NCBI GenBank assembly: GCA_964627085.1
Contig: CAZVIP010000002.1
Coordinates: 85,151-149,150, forward strand
From: an uncultured Candidatus Saccharibacteria bacterium
Lineage (GTDB): Bacteria > Patescibacteriota > Minisyncoccia > Phycocordibacterales > CAIZLB01
Reading direction: 5' to 3'
Length of the DNA stretch: 64,000 nt
The position numbers and the translations under genes were made by a program. A model generated the notes under the pieces. That model searched no databases. It was not told the origin of the DNA and was given only the letters and a program-made list of their open reading frames with translations. Positions 3,668 through 52,978 of the stretch are shown here, piece after piece. Each line of letters starts with the position of its first letter. Position 1 is the first letter of the stretch.

Positions 3668-4594
3668 ATGAAAGACCCACAGGTCAAAAACCTCCCAGCA
3701 GTGCCATACACTAGTCGCCAATTAGAAATCGAAGAAGGAAAACTCATGATCTCAGACAAGGTCCCCATGATGCTACTAAGACTCCTCAATGAATACACCT
3801 CTGACGAAGAGGCTAATAAATTGAGGGGTCGCATCAACACTGCATGGCTCACCTTCTTGCCACTAGCATTAGCTAGGGCACTATTCATATTCGTGTCACC
3901 ATTACTAAAGCTGTTCACCATTATTTATCTCTTCGCTCAAATCCTTTACTTTGGAATGAAGGCGTGGTTGAAAAATACATGGCACAAGAACGGCAAACAT
4001 GGATCCGAGTTCAACGAACTCAATGCACAACTGGCGTATCAACGGGTATGCAAACTCCGGCCTCGCTTTAGCAAGTATTGCCGAGAAAACTACCCATGGG
4101 TGTTGAAAGCTGAGTATGCTGAAACCGTCACAGGACCTCAAGATGAGGCCCTGGTTTTTGCAAAAGAGTTCAACTTGGACACTAACGCAATTGTAACCCC
4201 AATTGAGCTGGCGGAACTCTGCCACGTAGCAATTGTGGCACAGTGTAGAGCCCAACGTGCAGTAAGGGATTACAAAGCATTATCAGCTGCGGCAGAAGCC
4301 AAAGCCAAAAATATGTGCGAAAAGTTACTTGATACTGACCTTGGATTTAAAGGTGCTAGCTACGCACGCTGGTATGATAAGAGTCAATGGAGAGACCACA
4401 GGGCCGCTCACTTGCACATCTTCTTCCTTCGAGCAGATGACAAGCCGATGCCGTGGATACGAGCTGAAGTTGAAGAACTGGCGTCAAACGTGTCAGTTCC
4501 AGCAACCCTACCAGCTCAGCCGGTAGTGGAAACAGCATCAGCACCAACTGAACCAACCAAGGGACCAGTCGAAGTGGTCACCACCACCTCGTAA
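3668..4594 (+). CDS. Hypothetical protein with two predicted TM helices; GC-rich relative to the surrounding genome
   Basis: A 308 aa ORF with no recognisable conserved motif. Its codon composition is GC-rich (~45%+) against ~35% flanks. A bidirectional terminator follows it. Confidence 0.5.
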   Translation: MKDPQVKNLPAVPYTSRQLEIEEGKLMISDKVPMMLLRLLNEYTSDEEANKLRGRINTAWLTFLPLALARALFIFVSPLLKLFTIIYLFAQILYFGMKAWLKNTWHKNGKHGSEFNELNAQLAYQRVCKLRPRFSKYCRENYPWVLKAEYAETVTGPQDEALVFAKEFNLDTNAIVTPIELAELCHVAIVAQCRAQRAVRDYKALSAAAEAKAKNMCEKLLDTDLGFKGASYARWYDKSQWRDHRAAHLHIFFLRADDKPMPWIRAEVEELASNVSVPATLPAQPVVETASAPTEPTKGPVEVVTTTS

Positions 4595-4615
4595 ACTGAA
4601 ACCCTCAAACATTCG

Positions 4616-4650
4616 CAGGCCCGTCGCAATTTCGCGACGGGCCTTTCCAA
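4616..4650. terminator. Intrinsic terminator hairpin between convergent genes (ggcccgtcgc-aatttc-gcgacgggcc, then tttcc)
   Basis: A 10 bp GC-rich perfect stem located between the gene ending at 4594 (+) and the gene ending at 4660 (-). Confidence 0.6.
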
Positions 4651-4659
4651 TTCCCTCTT

Positions 4660-5304
4660 TTATATACGATGCTCTTTCTTTAGATAATCAAAACGTATCG
4701 TTGCAAGTACAGCAGTAAGTATGAGCATAAATGTGACATATTCAGGAATATGTAGATGGAAAAAAGCGGACATCAAAATAGACAGACCAATATACGCAAT
4801 GATTCCATATGCAGTCCGCGTCAATGTTGGGAACCTGCCAAGTAGTACGAGCATAAGTGGAGTGACAAACATCATGGTAATGATACCAATAGCAACACCA
4901 AAGACCACATAAGAAAACTGACTTGAAATACCTACGGCACCAACCACATTGTCGATACTGAATACAAGATCAGCAATTGCAATCTGACCAATTACTTTTC
5001 CAAAATGAGGATGGCGACGGAGCTCTTTTTGCTCATCACTTGAACGGAAAAAATGTGAGTATGCAAGATAACATAAATACAAACCTCCCAAGATTTTAAT
5101 AATTGGATTTTGAATAATAAGAGTCGCAAGAAAAAGACATACAAAACGAAATAGCGCACCAAGACAGATACCAATGTAAATTGCTTTCTTTTGTAATCTT
5201 GGTGGTAAGTCCTCAGCGAGCGATGCATTGACCAATGCGTTGTCGACACTGAGCATAAGCTCAAGAATGGTGATACTAAATATTGTTGAAATGACTGTGA
5301 GCAT
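4660..5304 (-). CDS. TerC-family integral membrane protein
   Basis: The duplicated motifs ELMLSVDNALV and FSIDNVVGA are characteristic of TerC/YkoY/Alx-type proteins. The protein has multiple TM helices. Confidence 0.65.
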   Translation of the reverse strand: MLTVISTIFSITILELMLSVDNALVNASLAEDLPPRLQKKAIYIGICLGALFRFVCLFLATLIIQNPIIKILGGLYLCYLAYSHFFRSSDEQKELRRHPHFGKVIGQIAIADLVFSIDNVVGAVGISSQFSYVVFGVAIGIITMMFVTPLMLVLLGRFPTLTRTAYGIIAYIGLSILMSAFFHLHIPEYVTFMLILTAVLATIRFDYLKKEHRI

Positions 5305-5332
5305 ACGGCTTTAATTTAATACTGCATGCGAT

Positions 5333-5878
5333 TTAATACCGTATACCGAGTATATTCAAAATGATTGGAGCAATTGGATCTGCGCCGATTCCATGTACCG
5401 TAACACCACCGAGAACACCTGTGACTGTGACAAGAACAAGGCCTACGAGTGCTAGTATTTTTGAGAAGACACCATCATGGAAAACAATTTTGAAGAAAGA
5501 GAGAATCTTTGAGAGTGTGCGCTTTGATCCTGATGCAGACGCACCATTAGATATATACCCCGTGAATTTGTCATTTGACAATAAGAATGCTGACAATTCC
5601 CCGAGTAAGAGTGCAACATACAACCAAGTGGCAGTAGTAGCAAAAGTTGAATGTGCTTCAACAATAGGATGATTTGGTTTTATTAAATGTTCTGCAATTT
5701 CACCTGTATAGAGCGCAACCATAGCACCGAGAGATCCAGCCAAAAGTGATATTCGCCTCACATCCACCCATGCAATTTGTGGCACCCATTTCTGGAATGG
5801 AATAATTTTAATCAAAGAATACATCAAAAGAAGTGCAATTGGGAAATGAACAAATAGTGGATGAAGATTATATGACAT
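5333..5878 (-). CDS. DUF2231-like membrane protein
   Basis: The N-terminus MSYNLHPLFVHFPIALLL and a 4-5 TM topology resemble DUF2231. The gene lies 28 bp upstream of the TerC gene, so the two are probably co-transcribed. Confidence 0.45.
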   Translation of the reverse strand: MSYNLHPLFVHFPIALLLMYSLIKIIPFQKWVPQIAWVDVRRISLLAGSLGAMVALYTGEIAEHLIKPNHPIVEAHSTFATTATWLYVALLLGELSAFLLSNDKFTGYISNGASASGSKRTLSKILSFFKIVFHDGVFSKILALVGLVLVTVTGVLGGVTVHGIGADPIAPIILNILGIRY

Positions 5879-5898
5879 ATCTTTGAGTATATCAGATT

Positions 5899-8800
5899 TT
5901 AGAGACCAGCATTAAACGCAGACCTTGTCTTGACTCCAAAATATCCCACAGCAGGGCTAATTTTATGAGCCTTTTGATATCTAATGATTGCCTGTCTTGT
6001 GGCGAGTCCGAATTTTGTGGTCTCTTTTCCGAGAGATCCCACTCCATAATTTGCAACAGGAAAACCATGAGTGTTGAGATATCTCTGTATTAGCTTAACA
6101 TCAGCGCCTGTCATCCAAAGACGGCGATTGATTGTAAATACATATAAATTATTTTGAGGCAAAGAGCCCTGTCCATTACCAATACCATTTCCTATCCCCG
6201 ATGTACTACTTGCATTATTTGTGAGTGAACTTTGACTAGAGCTTGCGGTACTTGAAGCATTGTTTTGTCCAATACCATAGATTATATACACCCCACCACC
6301 TGTACCAGATGAACCAGACGCCGGCGCTGACCCACTTGATGAACCACCTGTTGACCCACCTGAAGTTGGCACAGATGTTGCTGAGGTTGTAAATGTTTGA
6401 TCAGACGAGGTCGCAACATTACCTACTGCATCTGTTGAGATGACACGATAATGATATACAGATGACTGCGCGAGTGAACTAAGTGAAATTGAATGATTCG
6501 TATTTAGTGAACCGATTGATGACTGACTTCCATACGATGTAGTTAGGCCATATTCGACACTTGATGTCGCGCTTTCATTTGTTGTCCAAGAGATAGTTGC
6601 AGCAACATCTGTGACACCTGAGATAGTAATATTTGAAATAACAGGCGGAGTTATATCCGGTGCAATTGTTGTGGTAAATGTTGCATCTGCAGAGCTTGTT
6701 GAGTTCGATCCTGCATCCACTCCATTAATTTTAAAGTGATACAAAGTATTTTGGGTTAACCCTGTGATTGTCGCAATGTATGTTGTCGAACCTGTTGCCC
6801 CGATTGAACTGCCATAAGAAGTGGTAAGACCGTACTCAACGTCATATGTGGCACTCTCACTAGATGTCCAAGTAATCGTTGCTGTGGTCGGGGTTGTTGT
6901 TGCCGAGACCAATGTGATAGTAGGCGGAAGATCAGGTACATAACAAACAGATACGTTCCCTGTTACAGTACCAGAATTTGACGCAGTCGGTGCAAAACAA
7001 GCATCACCATCGATGGCGCCGTTATTATACGAAGTATCATAGAACTCTGAATTTCTATATAAAGTGCCCCCGTTATTGAATGCATTCCCACTAAATACAT
7101 ATTTAGTTATCGCAGCACTGTCAGACCCCAAAACCTCACCAACCACCGAACCAGACCATGCCTGATTATTAATATTGAACACACCACCCACTGGTTTTGT
7201 TGAATCTATTGCATCATAAAAATCTGTATTGAAGGTTGTTGTACCATTTACAGTTCCGCCATTTATGTATGTGGAATCATTGAAAATTACACCCTGAGAC
7301 ACAGACATGGTAACCAAGTATCCGAGGTTGGATGAACCGTTAAATGTTGCACTTCTAATTGAAATAGGTCCACCTGAATTAGCCTCAATAGCCGAAGTAA
7401 CAACAATATCATCATCAACACCAGGAACCGTTTCAGCCGGAATTGTTAAAATATCATTTAACCACCAGTTGCCTAAAGTGTGCCATTCACCATCCACAGA
7501 ATTGTGAAAGTAATTTCCACAAACAGACATTGTCCCTGATACAGTACCGTTATTTACAGCAGTTGGAGCGAAACAGGCATTACCATATATTATTAAACCA
7601 CTCTGAGCAGTGCCAGTAAATCGTGCAAAGTCTGAAACCGTAATTTCGAAACCCGATACTGATCCATTTGCGACATGTAGCGACTTTGCACTTGCTTGTG
7701 ATCCTCCGTTGTTTTGAATAATAGTCTCACCTACACCTACATATACATCATATTCACTTGTAGGAATAATACCTGCGGGGATGGTATAAGCAGAATCAGT
7801 AAACCAGTTTGTGAGGTCATGCCAATAACCATTATTCGCAGCATTGTGAAAATAAAGCTTGGTCGGACACACCGTCGTCGAACCTGAAACAGTTCCATAG
7901 TTTGTAGCTGTCGAAGCAAAACACGCATCCCCTGTGATCACACCCTGACCTTGATTCGTACTGATATCAAGAAACCGTGCATTACCTGTTAGCGACGCTG
8001 CGTTTGTACTTGAATCCCGGAAGACGTAATCCTCAACGATAGTACGGGCAATCATACCTGAACCTGGTACATATACGTCACCATTATATACACCGCTTAG
8101 CCAGCGACTACCAGATACAGTAAGTGTGCCATCTACTGGATAGATATCATTTGTCTCATCATAATAATTTGTATTAAAAAGCGTATCGCCGTTTATAGTA
8201 CCAGTGTTGTAACTAGTGTCATTAAAAGTCACCTCAGCTGTTATTGACCCAGAATCAAAGTGCGAGTTATCGTTAAATATTACCGTGTTTGCACTAATAT
8301 CACTCTGAGCATGACTATTATCATTAAAGACATACTGAGTAATTTGTGCCATGTCAGAACCATACACATTTCCACTGACGATCCCAGACCATATACCTTC
8401 ACCATTTATAGTCAAAATACCACCGGTTGGAGTTGAGCTACCATTTAGATAGTACTCTGTATTCAAATACATATCGCCATTTATATTTCCAAAATTATGT
8501 GAAAAATCATTGAAGGTAGCATTACCTATCACAGTCCCCTCATTTGTACTTCCTAAATTAAAAGTAGCATTACCGTTAACTGTATGTGAGTTTCGGAGTG
8601 GATTACCATTGAAAACCGCATCACCATCAATGTCAATGTCCGGTTCTGTTGGACCATTAAATACATACGAAGTTACTTGCGCATTATTTGAATCGTATAC
8701 AGTGCCATTTATTTCTGTTGACCAAATAGCACCTGTTGACATAGTGAACACACCAGACGTTGGTACACTTGAACCGATTTGGTCATATGCAGTTGTATTA

Positions 8801-10092: not shown

Positions 10093-10414
10093 ATATCAAC
10101 AACAGTTTCTCTTGGCGGGTCAATGATTTAAGTTTACACTCCCTTTTTCGCGCTAATTGGAGCGTCTCATGTATTTCGGTATATTTGAGTGTCACAGGAC
10201 GGCGGATCTTAGTATAGTGTGCACCGCTTTTTAGATTATTGTGTTGATTGAGTCTCTTTTCCATATTATTTGTACTTCCTATATACAAAGTCTTGTCATT
10301 GCACTCTAATATATAGACCACGAATTGTACTGGCCCGATTTCCCTACCAGTCTTTGGAGAAGTCTTTGGGGCTGTTTTCATTTTCACACCAGCTAGCTTT
10401 CGGGAGTTTTTCAC
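10076..10414 (-). CDS. GIY-YIG nuclease family protein (YhbQ/UPF0213-like). The true start is probably an internal Met downstream of the one given.
   Basis: VYILECNDKTLYIGSTNNMEKRLNQHN is the GIY-YIG signature. The predicted 5' region overlaps the upstream gene end, and the 3' end overlaps the start of the giant gene by 17 bp. Confidence 0.65.
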   Translation of the reverse strand: MKNSRKLAGVKMKTAPKTSPKTGREIGPVQFVVYILECNDKTLYIGSTNNMEKRLNQHNNLKSGAHYTKIRRPVTLKYTEIHETLQLARKRECKLKSLTRQEKLLLIFGVSK

Positions 10415-10479
10415 ATATATATAGTATCACCGTCCTTAAACTAAGTTCAATGCAATATATGTTAGAATGATTCGCAATT

Positions 10480-11343: not shown

Positions 11344-11345
11344 CC

Positions 11346-11945: not shown

Positions 11946-11960
11946 TCACACACCAATAAT

Positions 11961-12683: not shown

Positions 12684-12740
12684 ATCACACACTAGCAAGG
12701 CAGGTCAGGCTTCGCATGTACGGAATTTGAGGGCAAACAA

Positions 12741-12779: not shown

Positions 12780-12806
12780 TTTTAGAAATTATCAGATGGG
12801 CTCAGC

Positions 12807-15149: not shown

Positions 15150-15169
15150 ATCAAATATACTATTACAAA

Positions 15170-16270: not shown

Positions 16271-17767
16271 TCACTCAGGCAAACCCGGTTCTAGTTCATA
16301 CCGCAGGGCGGCATAAACATAAGGGTTGCTGAGAGCAAAGATTGCGAGTGCAGCCCGCACAGCTGATTCGAGATACGGTGCCCATGTAACTTGAGGTCGT
16401 CGACCCTCTGGTTGATAGGCATCGAACAGTTTCAGTGAATTATGCGCATCGGCAGCAAACGTATCCCCTAAGCAACAGATTACCGGCACTTCATGCTGCC
16501 ATGAAATTGTTGCCAGTTCTTGATTATAAGCCGGGACATCAGTAATGATGACGGTTTGATCCGCCCCCAAAATATGTTCAGCAAAATCAGGCCTAGGCAT
16601 TGCCTGCATTTCAACCGGTGAAGCTGTATGCGGTGGTGCGACTACATGCGCTATTATGCATCCAAAGTGTATTGACAGTGTATGCATTACTGTGTTTGCA
16701 AGACAGTGATAAGGACCTTCTGGAGCCCAAATGAGAATCTGCTGAGTTGGCACCGTGAACGTGGCGACAACTTTCGCTATTGCCTCAAAGTTTGCAGCCA
16801 TTGCCTTCCTCTGATTAGAGTCGGCTTTTGGGATGACTTCAGTAAGCAATGTGCGTGTGGAATCCACAATGCACCAACTGGTGAGATCGACGATGTCGGC
16901 AATCGAGAGATTACCTTTAGGGTCGATGCCAAATTCCAGTTTGATAGTGTGTAGCCGGAGCCCCTTGTCCTTGAATGCTTTTTCCAAAATCAGGAAGGCA
17001 CGGCGGGCAAGTTCCTCCATCTGCACAATGTATTTTTCCTCAAACGGCTCGGCGAACACGTCTTTGCGCTTGTATGTATGCGACGGTTGTAGTCCATCGG
17101 CAGTGTTTAGCCCGGATAGCTCAGGATTATAGAGATCAAAAGCGTCGTCATCTGGAAGGAACCACATCAGTGGATTTTCACAGAGTAGATTACGACCTTT
17201 CCATGTCGGACCCGTTGCCGTCTCCGTGGATTTGAGGTGTAAATCAACAGCGAGCTTCTTGTGTGTATCGCCGATACCTTTGTTTCGGAGCGCCGTGCTT
17301 GGGTAATCGCCTGCAACACGGTGTGTGAACACCATGTATGGCAACATCTTGCAGCGTGGTGCTGTGAATCCAAAATAGTCCGTAGGGAGTTCATCTTCTT
17401 TGCTCTGAGTATCACTCTTGGTTGGGGCACCCTTCCGTGGTTGCTTACTAAGCAATTTTGCAACCCCTTCAAATGCAACTGGAAGTCCAGCTGCCTTTAG
17501 GAAAGCAAAAATATCACAAGTGATTCTGATGGCTGACTCCTCAATTGAGGCGCCTCCGGTGCGTGCAGATTGCATAAAGATAGCAACTTCATCGAGATTC
17601 GATGCTGGAATGACACTGTATTTATACAGCGACCTGAATGATCCCTTTGGCATTGAGACATTGCTCGCGGCCGCCGGTCTGGGATCGGGTTCCGTGGAGG
17701 GTGTAATAGGAGCTGGTATTGCTGAGTTTCCTGAGGTTGGAGCCTCCGGTACATGAGTTGCGGCCAT
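16271..17767 (-). CDS. GC-rich 498 aa hypothetical protein with a SAICAR-synthetase-like segment
   Basis: GLRLHTIKLEFGIDPKGNLSIADIVDLTSWCIVDS resembles the PurC motif LILVDTKYEFG...DEV.TPDSSR. GC content is ~50% against ~35% flanks. It uses a TGA stop. Confidence 0.45.
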   Translation of the reverse strand: MAATHVPEAPTSGNSAIPAPITPSTEPDPRPAAASNVSMPKGSFRSLYKYSVIPASNLDEVAIFMQSARTGGASIEESAIRITCDIFAFLKAAGLPVAFEGVAKLLSKQPRKGAPTKSDTQSKEDELPTDYFGFTAPRCKMLPYMVFTHRVAGDYPSTALRNKGIGDTHKKLAVDLHLKSTETATGPTWKGRNLLCENPLMWFLPDDDAFDLYNPELSGLNTADGLQPSHTYKRKDVFAEPFEEKYIVQMEELARRAFLILEKAFKDKGLRLHTIKLEFGIDPKGNLSIADIVDLTSWCIVDSTRTLLTEVIPKADSNQRKAMAANFEAIAKVVATFTVPTQQILIWAPEGPYHCLANTVMHTLSIHFGCIIAHVVAPPHTASPVEMQAMPRPDFAEHILGADQTVIITDVPAYNQELATISWQHEVPVICCLGDTFAADAHNSLKLFDAYQPEGRRPQVTWAPYLESAVRAALAIFALSNPYVYAALRYELEPGLPE

Positions 17768-19618: not shown

Positions 19619-21106
19619 ATGAGAGACAACGAAAACGGAAAAATCCGTTGGGGTTTCGACTCCAGAGCATTTGACATGCATGTAAATCAGCGCTCAGAAT
19701 ACCCGACACCGCACAGCATTGCTCGCGGAAAAGGGACAGTCGGAGCACCGCTTCTGGTTGATGATATCCATAAACACGGAATCACTAGCCTTGGCACGAT
19801 GTCCATCGCATCGATGCGTCACGGAGAGGACTTCACAACAGGTGATGATTGGTTTTTAGCAAGAGCCTTTCTACCATATACCAACGGGCTTTTCTGGCTC
19901 GAAGGAACTTTTGGAATCGCCCACCAACTTGGTTGGGTGGTTGAACTACAAAGGCTTATGCGAATCAAACAGTTATCACTACTGTGTTTTCCGGTGAGAC
20001 AAGGTGAGCCTTCATGCTCGATTGATTTTCATCATACGAGATTTCTGCACACCTACGACGTTATCGTGCACGGACTCTTGTGCGCACACAATGCAGGTAT
20101 TAAAGGCAAGGATCTTATTGCGCTTGAAATTGCGCTTGCTATCCACGACCTCTTTACCCCAGCTTGTGGCGACCTCATGAAATTCGTCGATTTCAAACGT
20201 TTCGACGAAGATGCGAGACTCACAAAGCTTCTGGACCACGAACCATATGTCACCATGTGTGCACATTTTGAAATTGATCCGAAAGAACCGATTCGCATCT
20301 GCCAAGAAAGAAATTGTGCACTCTCACGGATCAGGGATTTTGCTGACACCTTGGCGTATACTGCCAGGGACCTCTCTGCCCTTATGGGATACTTTGAGAG
20401 TGGGACAGCAATGACCCAAACTCAAATATACGAGAATCCTGAAGACCAGGCGCTCCTACAAGAGCTTTTGAGATATCGTCATGACAAGTCCGATTTTGCA
20501 CTTCTTTTTGAGGGTATAGAATTGGATGAAAGAGGAAACCTCGTCTTCAAGAGCGCGGATAGGTTGAAAACTTTTCTGCGCATACGAGCAATTCTTTTCC
20601 GGATTCTTTATTACAACCGCCAAACACGGAACGTCGAATACCTCCTGGGTATCCGACTTGTAAAGATGCTTCTTGGAAAAGGAATACTTACCCTTGAAGT
20701 ATTTGAGGGTCCAAACTCCGACGATGGCTCCATCTGGAGCGGTATCTACAAAGAAACTGGTTACAATCCGTCCTTCATGCACAATGGAGCGATTGGAAAA
20801 ACCACGTCATTTGAGACACAAGAACTTGCAGAAGCACATGTCAAAAAATTCGCTAGCGACACAGTCTGTGGCCTCATTTACAAATGGCCATCACAGACTA
20901 GATCGAAAGTGAATTATTGGTATGTGAAAACTGCCGATGGACCCAAACTTTGGTGCGATCAATTCCCAAATGCAGCCGAAGAGATCAATAGGATTATTCA
21001 GCCTACAGGCAAGTATCATGTTGCTCTCATCAACAAAGTCGAGCTCCCGCATATGAAAGAAAAATACTGGCAAGAACTGAAAAGGTTTGAGCTGGTGCTT
21101 CTCTGA
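19619..21106 (+). CDS. HD-domain phosphohydrolase (dNTP triphosphohydrolase-like); GC-rich
   Basis: HTRFLHTYDV...ALEIALAIHDLFTPACGD matches the H...HD metal-binding pattern of HD-domain dNTPases. GC is ~50%. It uses a TGA stop and is followed by two hairpins. Confidence 0.55.
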   Translation: MRDNENGKIRWGFDSRAFDMHVNQRSEYPTPHSIARGKGTVGAPLLVDDIHKHGITSLGTMSIASMRHGEDFTTGDDWFLARAFLPYTNGLFWLEGTFGIAHQLGWVVELQRLMRIKQLSLLCFPVRQGEPSCSIDFHHTRFLHTYDVIVHGLLCAHNAGIKGKDLIALEIALAIHDLFTPACGDLMKFVDFKRFDEDARLTKLLDHEPYVTMCAHFEIDPKEPIRICQERNCALSRIRDFADTLAYTARDLSALMGYFESGTAMTQTQIYENPEDQALLQELLRYRHDKSDFALLFEGIELDERGNLVFKSADRLKTFLRIRAILFRILYYNRQTRNVEYLLGIRLVKMLLGKGILTLEVFEGPNSDDGSIWSGIYKETGYNPSFMHNGAIGKTTSFETQELAEAHVKKFASDTVCGLIYKWPSQTRSKVNYWYVKTADGPKLWCDQFPNAAEEINRIIQPTGKYHVALINKVELPHMKEKYWQELKRFELVLL

Positions 21107-21162: not shown

Positions 21163-21220
21163 GCACCCATACCCCAAAATTTCCTTAACGGAAGTGGCGG
21201 GGTGTGGGTGCTTTTGTTTT
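21163..21220 (+). terminator. Intrinsic terminator: gcacccatacccc...ggggtgtgggtgc followed by ttttgtttt
   Basis: A 13 bp stem with an inner small hairpin and a T-rich tail. It lies downstream of the HD-domain gene. Confidence 0.6.
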
Positions 21221-32325: not shown

Positions 32326-32399
32326 TGGCTGCCAGACTTGGAATCGAACCAAGATTAAAGGCTTCAAAGGCCTCTGTCCTACCTTTAGACGATCTGGCA
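32326..32399 (-). tRNA. tRNA-Gln (anticodon UUG), with the CCA encoded
   Basis: The reverse-strand read is UGCCAGA-UC-GUCU-AAAGGUA-GGAC-A-GAGGC-CUUUGAA-GCCUU-UAAU-CUUGG-UUCGAUU-CCAAG-UCUGGCA-G-CCA. This gives a 7 bp acceptor stem, a canonical T-arm (GGUUCGAUUCC) and a CUUUGAA anticodon loop. A 9 bp hairpin lies downstream. Confidence 0.8.
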
Positions 32400-33825: not shown

Positions 33826-34359
33826 ATGCCAGCTATTCAGAAAAAACCAACACCAAGAAAATGGGCAGCAATCCTGCGCACCAAACCAAAAACCGCCAAC
33901 AAGGACATCAAACGAAAACACGTTACAAAGAAGACAAAGCATGTCCCAGCCGACGAGATACCTTTCAAGGAATCTGACCGGCCAGGAATTGACCTTGGTC
34001 TTTTGGCCATGTTCCCTGAGCGGGCCAGCATACGCATTTGCCCAGCACTGGGAAATAAAGGCCTAGGACCCACAGATCCTCATTACTTTGAAATCACATA
34101 CAAGTGTCCCACTGGCAAAATCCGCGAGACAATAATGAAATCAAAGACTGCAAAAAGACGCACGCTGTTACTCAAGTGGATACGAGAATTCTTCTCCACC
34201 CTCGAGGAAAAAGTTTATGGTGACAAACGTCTCGGTCGCAGAGGTAAGCCAAAATTTACTTTACACTTCAATCCAGACGCAGTCAGAGATATCATGCGAG
34301 AACTTGCCGAAAAAAACTACATGCAGCTGCGACGCGCGGACGAAGTTACAAATCCATAA
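33826..34359 (+). CDS. GC-rich basic hypothetical protein (177 aa)
   Basis: It has a Lys/Arg-rich N-terminus, a terminator downstream and GC content clearly above its flanks. No motif was recognised. Two shorter overlapping + frame ORFs are probably artefacts. Confidence 0.35.
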   Translation: MPAIQKKPTPRKWAAILRTKPKTANKDIKRKHVTKKTKHVPADEIPFKESDRPGIDLGLLAMFPERASIRICPALGNKGLGPTDPHYFEITYKCPTGKIRETIMKSKTAKRRTLLLKWIREFFSTLEEKVYGDKRLGRRGKPKFTLHFNPDAVRDIMRELAEKNYMQLRRADEVTNP

Positions 34360-39202: not shown

Positions 39203-39960
39203 AAATTCATCTTTAACCAATCCCTCGTACAAGGTCCTTCCACGTAAGGACCCCAGATATAATACAGAGTGCAACTCAGGCGCTCACACGATTTCCCACG
39301 CATAGCACCGAGACAAAAGCGTTCTCTATATTATATCAACTCATGTACCAGTGTGAGTCTCACGTTTTGTTCGTTCCACTTTTGATGGGGTACGACTTGA
39401 TTTCCACACCTCTTGGAAAACCTATTGTATATGGATACCCTGGCAGTTTATTGCCATGCACCCTCTTGAACTTTCAGGACTTTCTCCTGCGCATGATTTG
39501 TTTTGTGCACGTAAATCATGTACGCATTTAAAAATACTGGGAGAGACAGATTACATGTATCACCTGAATGTGCTCGCGAAGTGCGAGTATTATTACAAGT
39601 GGCAATAAATAAAATGTCAGCTTCGGCAGGTGTCAATTTGCCTTTTTCGCCAGTGCAGAGTGGTCCCTGCATCAGTGAGGTAAAAAACTACCTCAAATTC
39701 AATCGGTGGAATGCGCATTTCTGCTCCGACTCGCCGCTAACTATGCGGCCTGAATGGGCGGTTGTTTGTGCTCTTCGGGAAAGGTGAACACAACTTAATT
39801 TCACAAGGCGATTCGTGGTACCGCCTGGATGGATGCCCAAAAGTGCATCCCTCTCTATTAATATGTATATACAATGTGAAGTCGGGCCTCCGAAATTCCG
39901 TTTCGGTGTACTGATCTACTCCGCTCAAAAGGATATCAAGACCTGACTACATGTCAATCA
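39203..39960 (-). ncRNA. GC-rich, hairpin-dense ~0.75 kb noncoding region, a candidate structured ncRNA or ncRNAs. Its class is unresolved: it resembles RNase P RNA only weakly and the 3' end is not tmRNA-like.
   Basis: The intergenic gap between tlyA and eno is about 1 kb, which is exceptional for this genome. Multiple perfect hairpins are present: GGUCCUU..AAGGACC, CUCGC-GAAGU-GCGAG, CCGAAA-UUCCG-UUUCGG and GAGGUA..UACCUC. The minus strand contains GGAGAAAGUCC (similar to the RNase P P4 5' strand) and GUGGGAAAUCGUGUGAGCGCC, but a consistent P4 or P1 pairing could not be verified by eye. Confidence 0.25.
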
Positions 39961-40080
39961 ATTTACCGATTTATTTTATAGGACACTTTTTATAAGGTAC
40001 TTCAAACATATACACGATATACCTAGATACGATATAGCCTATGTTTTTCTTTATGGTACAATCTCACCTGTAACTTATAA

Positions 40081-41547
<1,467 letters not shown>

Positions 41548-41584
41548 TTCAGATTTGTAAAAGTATAAAAAAGTAAAAGTGATA

Positions 41585-41616
41585 AACGCGCGGTCCGTGA
41601 GGACCGCGCGTTTTAC
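41585..41616 (+). terminator. Intrinsic terminator: cgcgcggtcc-gtga-ggaccgcgcg followed by tttta
   Basis: A 10 bp perfect GC stem with a GNRA-like loop, directly after the eno stop codon. Confidence 0.7.
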
Positions 41617-41660: not shown

Positions 41661-41924
41661 TTAGCAATTTGTCCTGATTGGCAAAGCACTTGTCCCTCGG
41701 TCATGGTTACAACGACGAGATCCAAGGATTTTTTCCCCATGATCCGGTGAGTAGTCCATACGCCTTGGGATTCTGTTTGGTGTGCAGATGCCACCAGCGT
41801 CGCAAACTTGCACGATTTGGAAATCGGTTTTATTTAGTCTGCGACACACAATTTCCTTGGACCCAAGAACCATCTCTGAGGTAATCAGAGCAGACCTCGA
41901 GGCCCTGACTTTCTTAGGGACCAT
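41661..41924 (-). CDS. Small (87 aa) Cys-containing basic protein with a strong Shine-Dalgarno sequence, inside a GC-rich intergenic island
   Basis: AAGGAGGAG lies 7 nt upstream of ATG (MVPKKVRASRSALITSEMVLGSKEIVCRRLNKTDFQIVQVCDAGGICTPNRIPRRMDY...). It has 5 Cys. No homology was recognised. Confidence 0.35.
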   Translation of the reverse strand: MVPKKVRASRSALITSEMVLGSKEIVCRRLNKTDFQIVQVCDAGGICTPNRIPRRMDYSPDHGEKILGSRRCNHDRGTSALPIRTNC

Positions 41925-42307
41925 TACACCCTTCTCCTCCTTGAACAAGGTCACTTTGTGATGCCACGGGTCACCTTTTACTGGTTTATCCGAGGCAGTC
42001 CCGCGGTAGTGATTTTGCGGGAGAGCAGGTGCCTGCCCTGGGTTTGATTTTTCACTTATATCCATTTGATTGGATTTTTGTTTTGTTGTTGGAACGAACT
42101 ATTGCCGAGCGGTTTGCCGGCGGTATTGAAACTGAGTGTGTACTCAGGCAAAACGACAGGTCTTGCTCAAATACTATGCATCAATGATTGAAATAAGTCA
42201 AATGGACTGTATCTGGCTCGATGTCCTGGAACCTGAAAACACAGGGAGCGAGAAGACTTCATAATTTACCCCTACCCTCTTTTTCATATATAGGATAAAA
42301 TTGCCAC

Positions 42308-44002: not shown

Positions 44003-44020
44003 TCTGAAATTAACTTTAAA

Positions 44021-44767: not shown

Positions 44768-44800
44768 GTGTGTATTATAGCAAATTGGGAGCGTGGGTTG

Positions 44801-45325: not shown

Positions 45326-45385
45326 TTTTTCTTTGCTTATTTACCTTTTGTTTTTTACCTACATTGATCAATCCCAGCACACAGA

Positions 45386-46954: not shown

Positions 46955-46955
46955 T

Positions 46956-48026
46956 TTAATTTAGTTGATTCATAATCCCGTACAGTGGCGACAATATTCC
47001 ATAAGCCAAAATACCGACCAACAAACCAATGATGACCATAAGCACAGGCTCTGATATCTTTATCAAAAAGTTAATTTGATTGGAAAGTATGGTTTTATAG
47101 TAGCCACAAAGATCAGCAAACATTTTATTGTAAGTCGACGACTTCTCTGCTGTCTTTGCATATATTACCCATATCTCAGGCAGATTCTCGGCACTAATAA
47201 TCGCAGCAGAGAGATTGTTTCCCTCCTCGATTTGGTTGGCTATAAAATTGAATTTATTTTTAAAGTGAAGCGATCCTGAATCTGCAGCCACCCTCCTAAA
47301 AGACAAAGGTAGGTTGTGCGTATATTCTATGTGTAAATACAGTACAGAGACATAGTTTGCACACAAATAATTTATATAAAAATTTTTAATTTTTGGTATC
47401 TTCAAAATCAAATTTTCAAGCCAAGCTTGTACCCTGGCATCGCTTAAGGAAAAAAATACCCCAATTAATAAGAGCATATGAATAAAAAGCACCCACATAC
47501 CATGCGAACGCAGAATATGCGAACCAAATACCAAGGCCTTTGTAATCAAGCCACTCTCAGTACCTCCTGCAATGACAGGTAAAATATTTGGTATCACAAA
47601 GAATAAGACAAGTAATAACAAAACACTTGCTATGCACATAACAATGATTGGATAAATGGCAATTGTTACAATAGATGCCGTACGCGACTTTGATTCATCC
47701 AAAAGCCCGGCAATATGGTTGAGCACATGCGGTATTTTTCCAACCTTCTCTGCAGATATTATTAAGTCTAAATTTCCAGACCTCCGTGACAGATCGCTCA
47801 GTTCAAGCGCTTGTGAAAAATTCGCACCCCCGGCAAATCGATCGATGATTTTGGAATATGTATTTTTACCAAGACTTGTAAATGAATCTACAGGTGAAAT
47901 ACCCGCAGAAATCATGGACGACAACAATCTTATGTGCTGAATATCAATTTTTATTTGCTTTTCCTTTACAGCATTACTATTTTTTTGAAATTTATTTAAT
48001 CTGAGAATATATTTTATCTTATTCAT
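46956..48026 (-). CDS. pilC: Type IV pilus/T2SS platform protein (PilC/GspF family)
   Basis: It has the GspF-type duplicated cytoplasmic domain architecture with 3 TM helices. The segment YPIIVMCIASVLLLLVLFFVIP is typical. Confidence 0.7.
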   Translation of the reverse strand: MNKIKYILRLNKFQKNSNAVKEKQIKIDIQHIRLLSSMISAGISPVDSFTSLGKNTYSKIIDRFAGGANFSQALELSDLSRRSGNLDLIISAEKVGKIPHVLNHIAGLLDESKSRTASIVTIAIYPIIVMCIASVLLLLVLFFVIPNILPVIAGGTESGLITKALVFGSHILRSHGMWVLFIHMLLLIGVFFSLSDARVQAWLENLILKIPKIKNFYINYLCANYVSVLYLHIEYTHNLPLSFRRVAADSGSLHFKNKFNFIANQIEEGNNLSAAIISAENLPEIWVIYAKTAEKSSTYNKMFADLCGYYKTILSNQINFLIKISEPVLMVIIGLLVGILAYGILSPLYGIMNQLN

Positions 48027-48080
48027 ACTCTATTTTGCCTTATTACTTTATATTGTTTATTCGACCAATCACTCACTCAA

Positions 48081-49148
48081 TTACCGCATATATTTATTCA
48101 TTTCCTCGCGAGATATATATCCATCATCATAGAGACTTTGTATCCTATCTTTGAGAAGCAAGACACCATTTGTGCGTATAGTTTCAGCGATGCTATATGA
48201 TTCCTTTGACATGAGTAATGTACTCTTGAGTTGCTTAGTAAATTCAATCATTTCAAAAACAACCTTTGAGCCTGACAAAGTCCTCACTTTGCGTTGCGAG
48301 ACAAGAAGTGCAATAACTGATGCACATGAACTCGAGCCAACTCCGAGCGCATGCAATCTATCTAGAATTTCAAGTGCGGAAGGTGCGTGGATGGTGGCCA
48401 GAACAAGGTGTCCAGTGAGCGCTGCCTGTACTGCAAGACTTGCGGTGTCACTATCACGAATTTCACCAATCATGATGACATCAGGATCCTGCCTCAAAAC
48501 CCCGCGTAGTGCAGCATTAAATCCAAAACCATATTCTGTTTGAACTTTTATCTGTCTAATACCTGGCATAATCACCTCTACTGGATCTTCGAGCGTGACT
48601 ATCACCCTATTGTCTCGGCCAATCTCTGAGAGGCATGAATACAGTGTTGTTGTTTTACCTGAGCCAGTCGGCCCCGAAACCAAGACTAAACCAGATTCGT
48701 ACAATAAAACTTTTTTTAATAAAGTGAGATCAGTAATATCAATCCCAAGTTTCTCAAGATCAAATACGGTTCGAGTGGTTGAGGTTACGAAAAGTCTACA
48801 CACTGCGTTTTCACCAAAAACAGTTGGCGCTGTTGCAGCCCTGACATGTGTTGTATACGCAAGATATTTAAATACAAAAGACCCGTCCTGACTCCTATCA
48901 GTTATATCCAGCCTCATATTTGCCAATACTTTAGTACGACCAACAAGACTTTGACACTCGGCATTTTGAACAAAAGTATGGTAAGCAGTATTCCCAGATA
49001 TACGCAGATATACCTCACTGCCACCCTCATATATATCTATATGTAAATCACTTGCTCGAAAATCTATTGCAATTTCGAATAATATATCAAGTTTCTCTTG
49101 AATGACTTCGCCAATTAAATTTGTATTTCTATGTTTACTTTTTTTCAC
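48081..49148 (-). CDS. GspE/PilB-type secretion ATPase (short form lacking the N-terminal domain)
   Basis: Walker A is LVSGPTGSGKTTTLYSCL. Walker B and Asp box are RQDPDVIMIGEIRD. The His box AALTGHLVLATIHA favours PilB/GspE over PilT. Confidence 0.7.
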   Translation of the reverse strand: MKKSKHRNTNLIGEVIQEKLDILFEIAIDFRASDLHIDIYEGGSEVYLRISGNTAYHTFVQNAECQSLVGRTKVLANMRLDITDRSQDGSFVFKYLAYTTHVRAATAPTVFGENAVCRLFVTSTTRTVFDLEKLGIDITDLTLLKKVLLYESGLVLVSGPTGSGKTTTLYSCLSEIGRDNRVIVTLEDPVEVIMPGIRQIKVQTEYGFGFNAALRGVLRQDPDVIMIGEIRDSDTASLAVQAALTGHLVLATIHAPSALEILDRLHALGVGSSSCASVIALLVSQRKVRTLSGSKVVFEMIEFTKQLKSTLLMSKESYSIAETIRTNGVLLLKDRIQSLYDDGYISREEMNKYMR

Positions 49149-49269
49149 ACAGAGAGCATACAGAATGACAGCTTAAATTCTCATCAATTATATATAAATA
49201 ACAAAATTGTTTTTGCTCAATTTAAACGAAAGCTCGAGTTGTTTTTTCCGTGAATAGATCCGCAAATTT

Positions 49270-50193
49270 TTACTCAACAAATTTGATACCGTTCTCCTCA
49301 TCAACCACATAATCCCCTACCTTTGTTCGAAAAATATCGTAAGCTATGGCACCTGTACCAAATATTTGGCCGAGCCAACACGCGAGACTTCTGACATAAA
49401 AGCCACTTGTACATTCAATTTCAAATTTTATGCTCATATATGCAGGTTCAGAATTTTCATCTTTTATACTCGAGGTATTTGTCTTCTCTTTTTCCCATGA
49501 AGAAATTATTTCATTTTGTCTAAAATCTCCCTTAATTTTTTGAGCAAAGTTTATTGATTCATGATAAATTTTTGATTTTGGAATAAAACGGATATCAAGG
49601 CAGGATATATTTTCAAGCGCAACTTCCTGTGTTGGTAATTTTAAATTTACTTCATCTAAACTATGGTCTTTTGAATATTGAAAAAGAGGCACTCCATCAA
49701 CTGGCTTTGAAGAAAAGAATGGATATGAAAGCGTAAAAGTACCAATGATATCTTTTATATATACCTGTAACGCCTCAATAAAATCTTTTTTAATTATCCG
49801 GTCACTTTCAATTAGGCTTTGATTATTCGAGATTTTTTCAAATATCGTCTTTAGATTCTGTTTAGTTGATCCAGAATTTACAATTTCTTGATGAGAATTT
49901 AATGTATGCCATGTTAAAAAAGTATTGCTCGGATAAATCACACCGAGCCGGTCGAAACTATCAGTACATACACCAAAAACAACCTCAAATTCATAGGTCT
50001 TCTTTAAATCTAGATAGGTAGATTTTTTGGTTATTTCCTCGTCTTTTAGGACGATAAGAAGCCCTCTGGCGAGTGGATCTAGCCTACCCGCATATGTGAA
50101 GCTGGATGAGTCAAAACCCCCTCCAAGGTGGCTTTTTAGGCGTCCTAGAGCCTCGAGACAGGTCTCTCCGGTGTTCTTGTATAATAAGTACAT
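49270..50193 (-). CDS. TruB-like tRNA pseudouridine synthase with a long C-terminal extension (start uncertain)
   Basis: TYAGRLDPLARGLLIVL..EEITKKSTYLDLKKTYEFEVVFGVCTDSFD matches the TruB catalytic motif (GTLDP.A.G.L....G.ATK......K.Y). The longest ORF would overlap the hisS start by 38 bp, so a downstream Met was chosen. Confidence 0.55.
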   Translation of the reverse strand: MYLLYKNTGETCLEALGRLKSHLGGGFDSSSFTYAGRLDPLARGLLIVLKDEEITKKSTYLDLKKTYEFEVVFGVCTDSFDRLGVIYPSNTFLTWHTLNSHQEIVNSGSTKQNLKTIFEKISNNQSLIESDRIIKKDFIEALQVYIKDIIGTFTLSYPFFSSKPVDGVPLFQYSKDHSLDEVNLKLPTQEVALENISCLDIRFIPKSKIYHESINFAQKIKGDFRQNEIISSWEKEKTNTSSIKDENSEPAYMSIKFEIECTSGFYVRSLACWLGQIFGTGAIAYDIFRTKVGDYVVDEENGIKFVE

Positions 50194-50215
50194 AGACGCT
50201 ACAATCATAACTATC

Positions 50216-51514
50216 ATGCAAATAAAGTCCACTATTAGCACAGAACCATACAAAGGTGTCAGGGATTTCTATCCTGAAGACCAATTTATCCAAGAGTATA
50301 TCTTTAGCGTCTGGAACAAGGCAGTACAGAGTTTTGGATTTGAATCATACAATGCATCTGTTATTGAACCTGCAGAATTGTACAAAGCAAAATCTGGCCA
50401 GGAAATTGTAAATGAACAGACATATACATTCATCGACCGTGGCGACAGAGAAGTAACACTTCGACCAGAGATGACACCTACAGTTGCAAGACTGGTTGCA
50501 GGACGCAGACGCGAGCTCGGCTTCCCTCTTCGCCTTTATTCTATTCCAAATGTATTTAGATATGAGAGACCACAGCGTGGACGACTACGAGAACACTGGC
50601 AGTTAAACGTCGACATGTTTGGTAGTAAGCATATCAGCAGTGACATAGAGATGATTGAGATTTCATCACATATTATGAAATCTTTCGGTGCAGACACGAG
50701 TGACTTCATTATCAAAATCAGTAGCCGAAAACTTCTCAACTCTATTTTTTCAGAGTGGTATTCATTTGATGAAGAAAAGTCACATGCTCTCAAGAAACTC
50801 ATAGACAGAAAATCAAAAATGCCCGAAGCAGATTTCTATGCTGAAGCAGAAAAAATCGCAGGTAAACCTTTTTCATTCCTTAATTTTGAAAACGATAACC
50901 CAGAGCTTAGTGAGGCATTCGCTTTCCCAAATATTAAATCTGCATATGACGAACTTCAATCTGTTATCACAAACCTCAAAGCAAAAGGCATCACAAACAT
51001 AGAATTCGATCAGACACTTATCCGTGGCTTTGATTACTATACCGGTATTATTTTCGAGGTATTCGATACTCACCCTGAAAACAATCGATCACTCTTTGGT
51101 GGTGGACGCTATGATGACTTACTTAAGCTCTTCGGTATTGATGATGTGCCAGCCTGCGGCTTTGGTATGGGTGATGTAACTATCGCCGATTTCCTCCGTA
51201 CACGTAATTTGCTCCCTGCCTACAAAGCAGCAGCTGACTTGATTGTCTGCCCCCTCTCTGAGGACTCACTCGAATATTCAAGCGGACTCTCAGCAGAACT
51301 ACGAGCCAAAGGTATACATACATGTACAAATAATTCCTTCAAGAATGTACGAGACCTATTCAAAACAGCTGAAAAACTCAAAATCAAATACTGCATCATT
51401 ATCGGTGAAGACGAAGTGAAAAACCAGCAATATAAAATAAAAGACCTAGAGACGGGTGCAGAATTTAGTAATGTGGATGAAATCTTGGGTACTATCCTGG
51501 AACTTAGAAAATAA
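50216..51514 (+). CDS. hisS: Histidyl-tRNA synthetase
   Basis: YKGVRDFYPED...RYERPQRGRLREHWQLNVDMFG...GGGRYDDL are class II aaRS/HisRS motifs 1-3 together with HisRS-specific signatures. TATAAT at 50180-50185 is a likely -10 element. Confidence 0.85.
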   Translation: MQIKSTISTEPYKGVRDFYPEDQFIQEYIFSVWNKAVQSFGFESYNASVIEPAELYKAKSGQEIVNEQTYTFIDRGDREVTLRPEMTPTVARLVAGRRRELGFPLRLYSIPNVFRYERPQRGRLREHWQLNVDMFGSKHISSDIEMIEISSHIMKSFGADTSDFIIKISSRKLLNSIFSEWYSFDEEKSHALKKLIDRKSKMPEADFYAEAEKIAGKPFSFLNFENDNPELSEAFAFPNIKSAYDELQSVITNLKAKGITNIEFDQTLIRGFDYYTGIIFEVFDTHPENNRSLFGGGRYDDLLKLFGIDDVPACGFGMGDVTIADFLRTRNLLPAYKAAADLIVCPLSEDSLEYSSGLSAELRAKGIHTCTNNSFKNVRDLFKTAEKLKIKYCIIIGEDEVKNQQYKIKDLETGAEFSNVDEILGTILELRK

Positions 51515-51559
51515 ATAAGTTACAATCTTCAGATAACTTTAGAATATTCACATTTATTT

Positions 51560-52135
51560 ATGCGTAAAATTGTACTCGATATAGAAACCAGAAATACATT
51601 TCAAGAAGTAGGTAAGGCTGATCCAACATTACTCGATATCTCTTTGGTATGTATTCATGATTCAGAAACTGATTCCTATACGAGTTATCTGCAAGAGGAT
51701 TTAATGAAACTCTGGCCAATTCTTGAGAGAGCAGATGTTTTAATCACTTTCAATGGTGACCATTTTGATATTCCCCTTCTCGACAAATACTATTCTGGTG
51801 ATCTCACAAAAATCAAAAGCTTAGACATTCTCAAAGAGGTTCGTAAAGCCATTGGCTTCCGTGTTGGTCTCGACAATATCGCCAGTGCTACTTTGGGCAA
51901 AGGTAAGATTGGCCACGGGCTCGAAGCAATTGATTGGTGGCGCGCAGGTGAAATAGATAAAATTATCAAATACTGTATCGGTGATGTTCAAATCACCAAA
52001 GAAGTATACGACTATGCAATTGCCAACAATACCCTTAAATACAAAGAGGGTGAACTTGCAATTGAATTCAAAATAGACACATCAGAATGGGAGAAAAAAG
52101 AAGACAAAACTATGACATTTAGTTTGCCATTTTAA
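51560..52135 (+). CDS. Predicted DEDD-type 3'-5' exonuclease (RNase H-like fold, PolB-exonuclease-like)
   Basis: LDIETRN (DxE), FNGDHFDIPLL and YCIGDV contain the conserved acidic residues. Confidence 0.5.
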   Translation: MRKIVLDIETRNTFQEVGKADPTLLDISLVCIHDSETDSYTSYLQEDLMKLWPILERADVLITFNGDHFDIPLLDKYYSGDLTKIKSLDILKEVRKAIGFRVGLDNIASATLGKGKIGHGLEAIDWWRAGEIDKIIKYCIGDVQITKEVYDYAIANNTLKYKEGELAIEFKIDTSEWEKKEDKTMTFSLPF

Positions 52136-52306
52136 TTCGCCGTTCTGTCTTTTTAATTGACAAAACATATAAATATTGTAGTATGTTTTTTGGACGCAGT
52201 GATGACTACATCAGCGCTCATTAACTTCAGTAAAAACCTACGGGAGCAATCCCAAAAACAATAAAGGGCATATGCCCAACACCGCACAGAAAGGCGGTTT
52301 TGAAAA

Positions 52307-52978
52307 ATGGACACATCGAAACTTGAGGCACGCAAACCAGAATTGCTTGCCTATATCAAAAACTGGCTAGAGATGGAGGGCTTACTCCAACCCGGCCATG
52401 AAGTCATTCTCTCCATCTCTGTGGTGCCGAGCACCGCACTGAAGATTGAGTTTGATAACGACTCAGAAATTGACACACTTATGGCAATGCCACTGAAGCA
52501 ATTTCTGCAAGAACACAGGGAGCAAGGCAATAGAAACTGGGCGGTTGTGGCTAGCTTGCTGGAAAGGACCCCTTGCCTGTCTTTACTTGGTCAACTTGTC
52601 AGGATGAGTGAAAGGGATTTCTTAAAGCACAGAAATGTTGGCAGGAAGTCACTGGAAGTTGTGAAGTCCTCTCTCCTGAAACTCAATCCCCGCCTATCAT
52701 TTGGACAAGAACATCTCAGAATGGGGTTGCTTGAAAAAGCGGCACTTGAGTCGATGCCAGTTACATGCGCACAGATTAATCTCAAGAGCTTCACAGGTGA
52801 CCCGTTACTAAAACTCGACACCCTTGGGGACGTCTGTTCTGCTACGCATGATGAACTAAAACGTGCTTTTCACGCAGTTCCTAAGTGGACTGACGCGGTT
52901 GAATTAACTGAATTTGAAAAGGAAATCAATAGGCTCCGATACGAAATCAAGTTTTTCAACCTAAAGCCCAACTTCTAA
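52307..52978 (+). CDS. GC-rich hypothetical protein with two RNA-polymerase-alpha-CTD-like helix-hairpin-helix motifs
   Basis: VRMSERDFLKHRNVGRKSLEVVKSSLLKL resembles the rpoA alpha-CTD segment SVRSANCLK...LLKTPNLGKKSLTEIKDVL. A second similar unit is LGDVCSATHDELKRAF. Confidence 0.4.
   Translation: MDTSKLEARKPELLAYIKNWLEMEGLLQPGHEVILSISVVPSTALKIEFDNDSEIDTLMAMPLKQFLQEHREQGNRNWAVVASLLERTPCLSLLGQLVRMSERDFLKHRNVGRKSLEVVKSSLLKLNPRLSFGQEHLRMGLLEKAALESMPVTCAQINLKSFTGDPLLKLDTLGDVCSATHDELKRAFHAVPKWTDAVELTEFEKEINRLRYEIKFFNLKPNF

Follow-up and report, generated by a model that had tools for sequence, protein, structure and literature searches.

GC-rich genes scattered through an AT-rich Patescibacteria-like chromosome are probably horizontally acquired accessory islets

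Why do single genes of clearly higher G+C (GC) content lie scattered through an otherwise AT-rich bacterial chromosome? We addressed this question in a 64-kb stretch of contig CAZVIP010000002.1 (hereafter the window), where a preliminary description had picked out six GC-rich open reading frames (ORFs) between positions 3668 and 52978 and had proposed that they were acquired repeatedly, from a GC-richer donor or from a shared mobile-element pool. Our analysis leads us to think that these ORFs, together with a few neighbours, are probably scattered accessory islets, gained independently by horizontal gene transfer (HGT) from several mid- to high-GC sources and still unameliorated in the AT-rich chromosome. 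Islets of this kind are ordinary and well known, and the finding is mostly confirmatory; the unusual elements are the lasting GC offset of one HD-domain family, a putative degenerate PAICS scaffold, and a hypervariable patch.

GC-rich ORFs differ from the background at every codon position

Composition was computed per codon position on a non-overlapping ORF set, and the six listed ORFs were compared with 50 background genes. The GC-rich ORFs are given below, with GC1, GC2, and GC3 denoting the GC content of the first, second, and third codon positions.

3668-4594, plus strand: 308-amino-acid (aa) orphan with a hydrophobic segment; GC 0.475, GC3 0.477, stop TAA
16271-17767, minus strand: PAICS-like gene; GC 0.493, GC3 0.452, stop TGA
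19619-21106, plus strand: HD-domain gene; GC 0.458, GC3 0.459, stop TGA
33826-34359, plus strand: 177-aa basic orphan; GC 0.463, GC3 0.458, stop TAA
41661-42065, minus strand: 134-aa Cys-containing orphan; GC 0.489, GC3 0.493, stop TAA
52307-52978, plus strand: alpha-CTD-like gene; GC 0.460, GC3 0.502, stop TAA
57857-58471, plus strand: member of the three-gene UvrD-RpoD islet; GC3 0.415
58636-59310, minus strand: middle gene of the same islet; GC3 0.446, stop TGA
59527-60150, plus strand: member of the same islet; GC3 0.498, stop TGA

The GC3 of all six listed ORFs lay above that of every background gene, a significant difference (Mann-Whitney U=300, p=3e-8; binomial z 3.7-6.2). Background genes averaged a GC of 0.386 (sd 0.029, max 0.449) and a GC3 of 0.327 (sd 0.043, max 0.417). 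The contrast described earlier is hence real, with a range of 46-49% in place of 45-52% and flanks of 31-45% (mean 38.6%) in place of 33-38%. GC1 and GC2 were likewise shifted upward. Third positions were near-uniform in the GC-rich set (~0.25 for each base), compared to a T3 of 0.37 in the background, with both C3 and G3 raised. In the encoded proteins, Trp, Cys, Pro, and Arg were enriched 1.6-2.1x, and Ile, Asn, and Ser were depleted.

Stop codons and orientation also set these genes apart. TGA ends 6 of 10 GC-rich ORFs, when the additional ones are counted, versus 1 of the 50 background genes; among the listed ORFs, the TGA stops reported before were found for 16271-17767 and 19619-21106, whereas TAA ends the other four. 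Antiparallel orientation to both neighbours was found for four of the six, versus 4 of 49 in the background (Fisher p=0.003). A terminator of its own had been ascribed to each ORF, and a GC-rich hairpin was indeed present at most ~100 nucleotides (nt) downstream of five of the six, the hairpin after 33826-34359 being weak. The contrast held for all six ORFs of the original list, each of them single-gene, but the list had missed 58636-59310 and 59527-60150 (GC3 0.45 and 0.50), and the islet that holds them, at 57857-60150, has three genes. The small Cys protein placed at 41661-41924 is called by gene finders as 41661-42065. With the UvrD-RpoD additions, the six listed islets grow to eight or nine genes. 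An imported or fast-turnover fraction, ~15% of the window genes, would be visible by composition alone.

The amelioration of compositionally atypical acquired genes was reportedly set out in 1997 by Lawrence and Ochman. With their regression formulae, the GC1, GC2, and GC3 of eight pooled GC-rich ORFs back-calculated to a coherent source GC of ~44-49%.

Gene 52307-52978 occupies a slot that is empty in close relatives

Gene 52307-52978 is flanked by genes for an RNase-H-like exonuclease and a DsbA-like thioredoxin. We fetched 80 related metagenomic loci via HisRS and found these two flanking genes adjoining in 27 relatives. The slot is empty in nine of them (45-85 bp between the flanks), including the two closest, L053 and L057. 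In thirteen more distant relatives, it holds a UppP/BacA gene of ordinary composition, and in L012, L059, and L083 it holds other, unrelated GC-rich inserts. This distribution across relatives indicates that 52307-52978 is a lineage-specific insertion at a repeatedly hit slot.

The 223-aa product scored 28.2 bits against Pfam RNA_pol_A_CTD (gathering cut-off 23.8) and matched NCBIfam rpoA C-terminal models, which bears out its earlier designation as alpha-CTD-like. Only one homologue is known (P0017, 56% identity). In both proteins, residues 93-123 match the helix-hairpin-helix of the RNA polymerase alpha-CTD (PF03118) above the gathering score. However, the match covers just half of the 67 residues of the domain, and an alpha N-terminal domain is lacking; 52307-52978 is a stand-alone protein and not RpoA. 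A perfect 12-bp hairpin follows the gene at 52999-53027.

The PAICS-like gene 16271-17767 and its hypervariable patch

The 498-aa protein of 16271-17767 matches Pfam SAICAR_synt (1.2e-7), in agreement with its first label of SAICAR-synthetase-like, which can be widened to a PAICS-type PurC+PurE fusion. An exhaustive HMMER search recovered 247 relatives, mostly of 400-455 aa, the best being 38% identical. SAICAR_synt was present in all 35 relatives that were aligned and AIRC in 25 of them, and the family profile matched insect and human PAICS (4ja0 and 2h31) at 8e-95 and 1e-93. In the AlphaFold model (predicted local distance difference test, pLDDT, 74), the top Foldseek match was human PAICS (6yb8; 2.8e-20), and PurE chains matched the C-terminal part.

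The protein keeps R161, K179, E278, and D291, which are invariant with 34 relatives, while 25 of 69 highly conserved columns are altered. Motif changes include GKTK to GSFR, DDP to ENP, LxD to LHT, and ND-SWR to LT-SWC; the PurE signatures GS..D, S.HK, and SNG.GP are absent, as is a Pfam AIRC match. The first ~50 residues are disordered and Pro/Ala-rich. The model and alignments thus point to a degenerate PAICS-type fusion, with a SAICAR-synthetase fold and a class II PurE-like fold, that is probably not a working purine enzyme. The two folds stand in the same order as in the PAICS of animals (2h31, 6yb8, 4ja0) and of the prokaryotic metagenomic relatives. The differences are an identity of at most 38%, the loss of motifs at both active sites, the disordered N-terminus, a patch that is hypervariable among strains, and the lack of any other purine-pathway gene in the window.

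The three nearest traceable relatives of this gene (P0020, P0025, and P0021) have native composition in genomes of GC 0.56-0.64. Judged by its GC1 and GC2, 16271-17767 would come from a source of 50% GC or more, and judged by GC3 from one of 46%, which is the pattern expected of partial amelioration. The terminator hairpin of the gene lies at 16201-16172.

The window was also compared with strain contig L142, obtained from another sample. Only 20 of 5040 nt differ; 19 of these fall in the PAICS-like gene and none in five flanking genes. Most are concentrated in a single short segment:

17592-17679, minus strand: hypervariable patch, codons 30-59 of 16271-17767; 88 bp with 18 of the 20 L142 differences (L142 767-854)

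The patch takes in the last part of the disordered N-terminus along with the strand on which real PurC proteins bear GKTK. Its substitutions are distributed 9/8/2 over the codon positions and give 12 nonsynonymous and 2 synonymous codons. Positive selection was considered and set aside, as by our own calculation neither the 12:2 ratio nor the 9/8/2 split is significantly non-neutral and only the clustering is significant. A diversity-generating retroelement (DGR) was rejected as well: no template copy was found in the window and no reverse transcriptase domain among its annotated genes, and many adenines are common to both patch alleles, in a pattern that is not adenine-specific. Such extreme clustering with a near-neutral ratio suggests that a short tract was imported by recombination, that some other targeted process acted, or that the assembly is in error. 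In one sample, the PAICS-like protein is present as a frameshifted, truncated allele (P0169).

The HD-domain gene 19619-21106 belongs to a patchy family

Gene 19619-21106 encodes a 495-aa HD-domain protein, lies antiparallel to both neighbours, and has a hairpin on its 3' side at 21163-21211. Thirteen homologues were found (22-58% identity), and H139, H176-D177, D243, and D251 are invariant across the 14 sequences of the family, giving an H...HD...D metal-binding pattern. No curated model matched at E<0.01 in Pfam (HD), NCBIfam (dGTPase), or PADLOC (dGTPase). An AlphaFold model based on the homologue alignment (pLDDT 86.8; predicted template modelling score, pTM, 0.90) was matched by Foldseek to 2hek (Aquifex O67745; E 4.5e-8, template modelling score, TM, 0.50/0.66) and to 4lrl (Enterococcus EF1143; 3e-6). 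Further matches were 2q14 (BT4208) and many SAMHD1 entries at ~1e-4; the family profile reached 4.7e-4 to 2hek and 0.18 to dGTPase-like chains.

These structural matches support a predicted SAMHD1/EF1143-like fold and a deoxynucleoside triphosphate (dNTP) triphosphohydrolase-like protein, as the earlier label of HD-domain dNTPase-like had it. With SAMHD1/Dgt/EF1143-type dNTPases (2hek, 4lrl, 2q14, 4bzb) the protein shares the metal-binding motif and the overall fold (E 4.5e-8 to 1e-4, TM 0.42-0.66), but its identity to them is 11-17% and it lacks a curated-model match. Its N-terminal beta domain and its alpha/beta domain at the C-terminus are peculiar to this small family. A hidden RNA element in the family was ruled out, since site-specific synonymous conservation is absent (observed/expected ~1.0).

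The family is patchy and non-syntenic, and its members came only from Patescibacteria-like contigs, which differ widely in GC. Six contigs with HD homologues (L133-L138) show six different gene contexts. Between L133 and L134, AlaRS is 79% identical and the HD protein only 50%, and the HD genes stand on opposite sides of AlaRS, which argues against simple vertical descent. HD neighbours in other genomes include Nudix, MazG, PurC, PurM-like, PurO-like, and PyrD genes, themselves GC-rich in L133 and L134, and this proximity suggests a role in the nucleotide pool.

L133 (6873-11549) and L134 (6634-11998) come from two very AT-rich relatives (background GC3 0.14-0.30), and in them GC-rich genes, mostly of nucleotide metabolism, are interleaved with AT-rich housekeeping genes. 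The GC-rich genes there are PurC, PurM-like (AIRS), IMP-cyclohydrolase-like, and PyrD genes, a gene for an unassigned 345-aa protein, and the HD gene.

Orphan ORFs and the UvrD-RpoD islet

The remaining GC-rich ORFs are largely orphans. ORF 3668-4594 is antiparallel to its rhodanese and TerC neighbour genes and is followed by a perfect 11-bp hairpin at 4617-4644; its exact protein was found on 24 contigs and forms a one-member cluster. ORF 33826-34359 is antiparallel to both neighbours, and its exact protein was found on 26 contigs. ORF 41661-42065 is antiparallel to the enolase and iPGM genes, has a perfect 13-bp hairpin at 41584-41613, and is known as three alleles, each one residue apart. 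No Pfam, NCBIfam, PADLOC, or PHROG match was obtained for these three or for 58636-59310 and 59527-60150.

One further islet holds more than one gene:

57857-60150: three-gene accessory islet between UvrD and RpoD, in which two membrane-protein paralogues flank 58636-59310

The paralogues 57857-58471 and 59527-60150 are 29% identical (E 1e-22). They differ in GC3 (0.415 versus 0.498), as if of different ages or sources. The middle gene has an allele (P0178) with 11 of 224 residues changed. The proteins of 58636-59310 and 59527-60150 were found on only 4 and 1 contigs, versus ~25 for other genes; these low counts at 58.6-60.2 kb suggest a strain-variable region. In L012, L059, and L087, the UvrD-RpoD gap contains different GC-rich ORFs.

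Strain variation (the hypervariable patch, the frameshift allele, and the ~5% divergent allele) was seen only in GC-rich genes. The fetched contigs were otherwise 100% identical over the stretches covered (window 6271-51547).

Sources and relatives of the islets

No common donor accounts for the islets: the HD family is Patescibacteria-like, the PAICS-like relatives reside in bacteria of 56-64% GC, and the rest are orphans. Acquisition from a GC-richer source was upheld wherever it could be tested (the empty 52307 slot, the patchy HD family, the PAICS-like relatives, and the strain variation), though not with a single donor. HGT is frequent in Patescibacteria and takes place mostly among Patescibacteria (PMC12455944), in line with which some of the exchange probably occurred within this group.

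The suggestion of a shared phage or plasmid gene pool found no support. IMG/VR contained no relatives for seven islet proteins and the HD family pattern, and PLSDB gave no match in a tblastn search with the two large genes (16271-17767 and 19619-21106). Islet proteins had no meaningful match in PHROGs and none among the defence systems of PADLOC. When 84 GC-rich ORFs taken from 120 related loci were compared all-versus-all by BLASTP, no family in common with the window ORFs emerged, so the GC-rich ORFs do not form one paralogous or mobile family.

The islets share several traits with described genomic islets and HGT genes (Lawrence & Ochman; PMC12455944). All codon positions are atypical, stop usage differs, a syntenic slot lacks the gene, and the genes are patchy, strain-variable, and mostly orphan or accessory. 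They differ in being single genes spread over 50 kb instead of a multi-gene island, without integrase, tRNA flank, or repeats, and in being GC-richer than the core, with no donor found. Accessory DNA is usually AT-richer than the core (PMC5303225); the direction seen here is opposite to this rule for free-living bacteria but is expected when the core is AT-rich.

A sister comparison based on PPDK, covering 42 loci, showed that synteny is lost except in L012. This relative has the same mosaic as the window, including a low-molecular-weight (LMW) phosphatase gene of GC 0.58 in a 0.37 background. Islets of 0.51-0.64 GC were seen in the 37-40% GC genomes L012 (12050-12583, 16556-17224, and 20074-20965) and L059 (8522-8938). 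One of them, read from the minus strand, is a true LMW phosphatase gene (Pfam LMWPc 1.2e-14), and the others contain only broken or implausible ORFs and have no Rfam match. The closest HisRS relatives L053 and L054 (63-67% identity) range from 37.6% to 55.5% GC, which shows that genomic GC shifts quickly within their clade.

Weighing the explanations

Several results weigh against acquisition by HGT. The slots of the remaining listed islets showed no synteny in any fetched relative, and no high-identity donor was found for any islet gene. No integrase or transposase was present among the window Pfam hits, the only window tRNA (32326-32399) is not adjacent to any islet, and the search for target-site duplications or flanking repeats around the islets returned only short repeats at chance level. 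Mobility hallmarks are not obligatory for transformation-mediated gain. The orphans are putative genes, recognised by ORF length and, for some, by single-residue alleles, and that translation of the three small ones is presumed is a point on the same side. So is the composition of the HD gene, whose GC3 exceeds that of its host by +0.13 in the window, +0.28 in L133, +0.23 in L134, +0.15 in L136, and +0.17 in L138. Synonymous sites are saturated in all HD pairs and in the AlaRS of L133/L134 (same-codon observed/expected ~1.0), and at such divergence a vertically inherited HD copy should have ameliorated by now. The window and L133 also have a common neighbourhood of HD, Nudix, Ser-hydrolase, and PEP-utilising enzyme genes, which hints at some vertical history. 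The HGT model covers the HD excess only if every copy is assumed to be recent. Two readings are left: all copies came in recently from donors not yet sampled, as fast turnover would make plausible, or a gene-specific force maintains GC. Vertical conservation with the same composition, which the preliminary description had named as refuting its proposal, was thus partly seen, for the HD gene only, which is GC-elevated in four other AT-rich Patescibacteria contigs; lasting maintenance of GC is a serious rival for this family.

Long-term residence under such a force, be it GC-biased gene conversion or selection on mRNA or DNA GC, appears unlikely to us as the explanation for the whole set. It would fit an HD family that is elevated in five of five AT-rich hosts and close to host composition in the two GC-rich contigs L135 and L137 (slope of gene GC3 on host GC3 ~0.6), and the saturated sites, which imply ample time for amelioration. 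The remnant synteny between the window and L133 can be read the same way, as can the uniform habit of the family: 7 of 7 HD copies are antiparallel to both flanking genes and 6 of 7 stop with TGA, in genomes dominated by TAA/TAG. However, GC1, GC2, and amino-acid composition are shifted too, and site-specific synonymous conservation is absent. The divergence and displacement of HD relative to AlaRS in L133/L134 and the slot of 52307 left empty in close relatives speak for gain, and the remaining GC-rich ORFs are orphans that are unrelated to one another and share no function for selection to work on. A different account concerns only the three small orphans (33826-34359, 41661-42065, and perhaps 3668-4594), which might be structured RNA or decayed foreign DNA with chance frames; we judge this improbable. 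Stop codons are AT-rich, so open frames arise in GC-rich DNA. These ORFs have no homologue, domain, or structure support, and their amino-acid usage drifts to that of random sequence (excess Cys, Trp, Arg, and Pro). The GC 0.5-0.64 islets of L012/L059 with their broken or implausible ORFs and the gene-poor window stretch 2537-3132 (GC 0.448) would be in keeping with it. On the other hand, no Rfam family was found in the window or in eight related loci, and frames of 134-308 codons are unlikely to arise by chance in 0.5-1 kb at 47% GC (at most ~0.05 expected, by our own estimate). GC1 exceeds GC2 as in coding sequence, and the idea is inapplicable to the 495- and 498-aa genes with confident folds.

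Translational selection in highly expressed native genes with a preference for C-ending codons is very unlikely. C3 is indeed up in all GC-rich ORFs, but G3 is up as much and third positions are merely uniform; enolase, the most codon-biased window gene, has a GC3 of 0.31, and the genes in question are orphans or degenerate enzymes, one of them with a frameshift allele. Scarcely credible is an assembly or binning chimera that stitched foreign DNA into the contig, for which the atypical composition itself and nothing else would speak. Ten Logan contigs, independent assemblies of nine runs, reproduce 6271-51547 at 100% identity and thereby cover four of the six islets on the list, junctions included; 3668-4594, 52307-52978, and 57857-60150 lie outside this DNA-level check. 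At the protein level, seven of the eight GC-rich proteins were found on 4-26 contigs (59527-60150 on one), and all are in the NCBI record of 156.5 kb.

A possible route of gain and its meaning

Under the HGT reading, DNA would enter through a type IV pilus/competence machinery, which the window encodes in part, and illegitimate or short-homology recombination would then place it between resident genes. Every insert would bring its own terminator and often lie antiparallel to the flanking operons. Fast turnover might then keep the accessory genes young at any time, carrying the mid-GC "dialect" of a wider pool (~44-49% GC, more TGA). The two large genes may act on the nucleotide pool, one as a SAMHD1-like dNTP hydrolase and the other as a catalytically degenerate PAICS scaffold, a role that would fit salvage-dependent cells or a defence by nucleotide depletion.

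A joint reading of both genes, which we regard as distinctly doubtful, would be that Patescibacteria share a pool of nucleotide genes (SAMHD1-like HD, PurC, PAICS, PurM, PurO, and PyrD types) kept GC-rich by recombinational exchange with GC-biased conversion, or by selection, and not by recent arrival. The PAICS-derived protein would then serve as a sensor or immunity scaffold, its catalysis lost, and a targeted process would have diversified its N-terminal patch (18 changes in 88 bp between strains that are otherwise identical).

The genomes of Patescibacteria are tiny and their nucleotides come from other cells, and the genes that they import repeatedly reveal limiting factors. The previously unnamed SAMHD1-like family and the predicted degenerate PAICS are candidates for salvage or for anti-phage nucleotide depletion. 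The HD family also calls for caution with composition-based HGT calls, as it keeps its GC excess in deeply diverged hosts; an atypical gene is not necessarily a recent one.

Other features of the window

The window has a GC content of 39.8%, its cumulative GC skew falls steadily, and the minus strand carries 43 of its 59 genes. Among its products are enolase, iPGM, a PPDK-like enzyme, DnaG, RpoD, a UvrD/PD-(D/E)XK helicase, HisRS, TruB, and Dus; it also has type IV pilus genes and a single tRNA-Gln. For PPDK and HisRS of the window, the best relatives were found in metagenome-assembled genomes that bear the labels Paceibacterota, Patescibacteria, or "Saccharibacteria", and by such sequence matches it is assigned to a Paceibacteria-like Patescibacteria (candidate phyla radiation, CPR) chromosome.

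The segments 2537-3132, 39304-40116, and 57699-57856 are unusually long stretches without a convincing gene. The first ends with a strong plus-strand hairpin and T-run (3017-3053), the second has a GC peak of 0.52, and neither has an Rfam match. ORFs 2726-3175 and 39518-39787 were excluded as probably spurious; the former contains the strong plus-strand hairpin (3017-3043) and has an implausible translation. The only non-coding RNAs that Rfam gave in the window and in eight related loci were tRNAs. In L011, L023, and L028, the PPDK-like gene is followed by repeats of the region for the C-terminal PEP-utilising mobile domain, with three to five extra copies in tandem.

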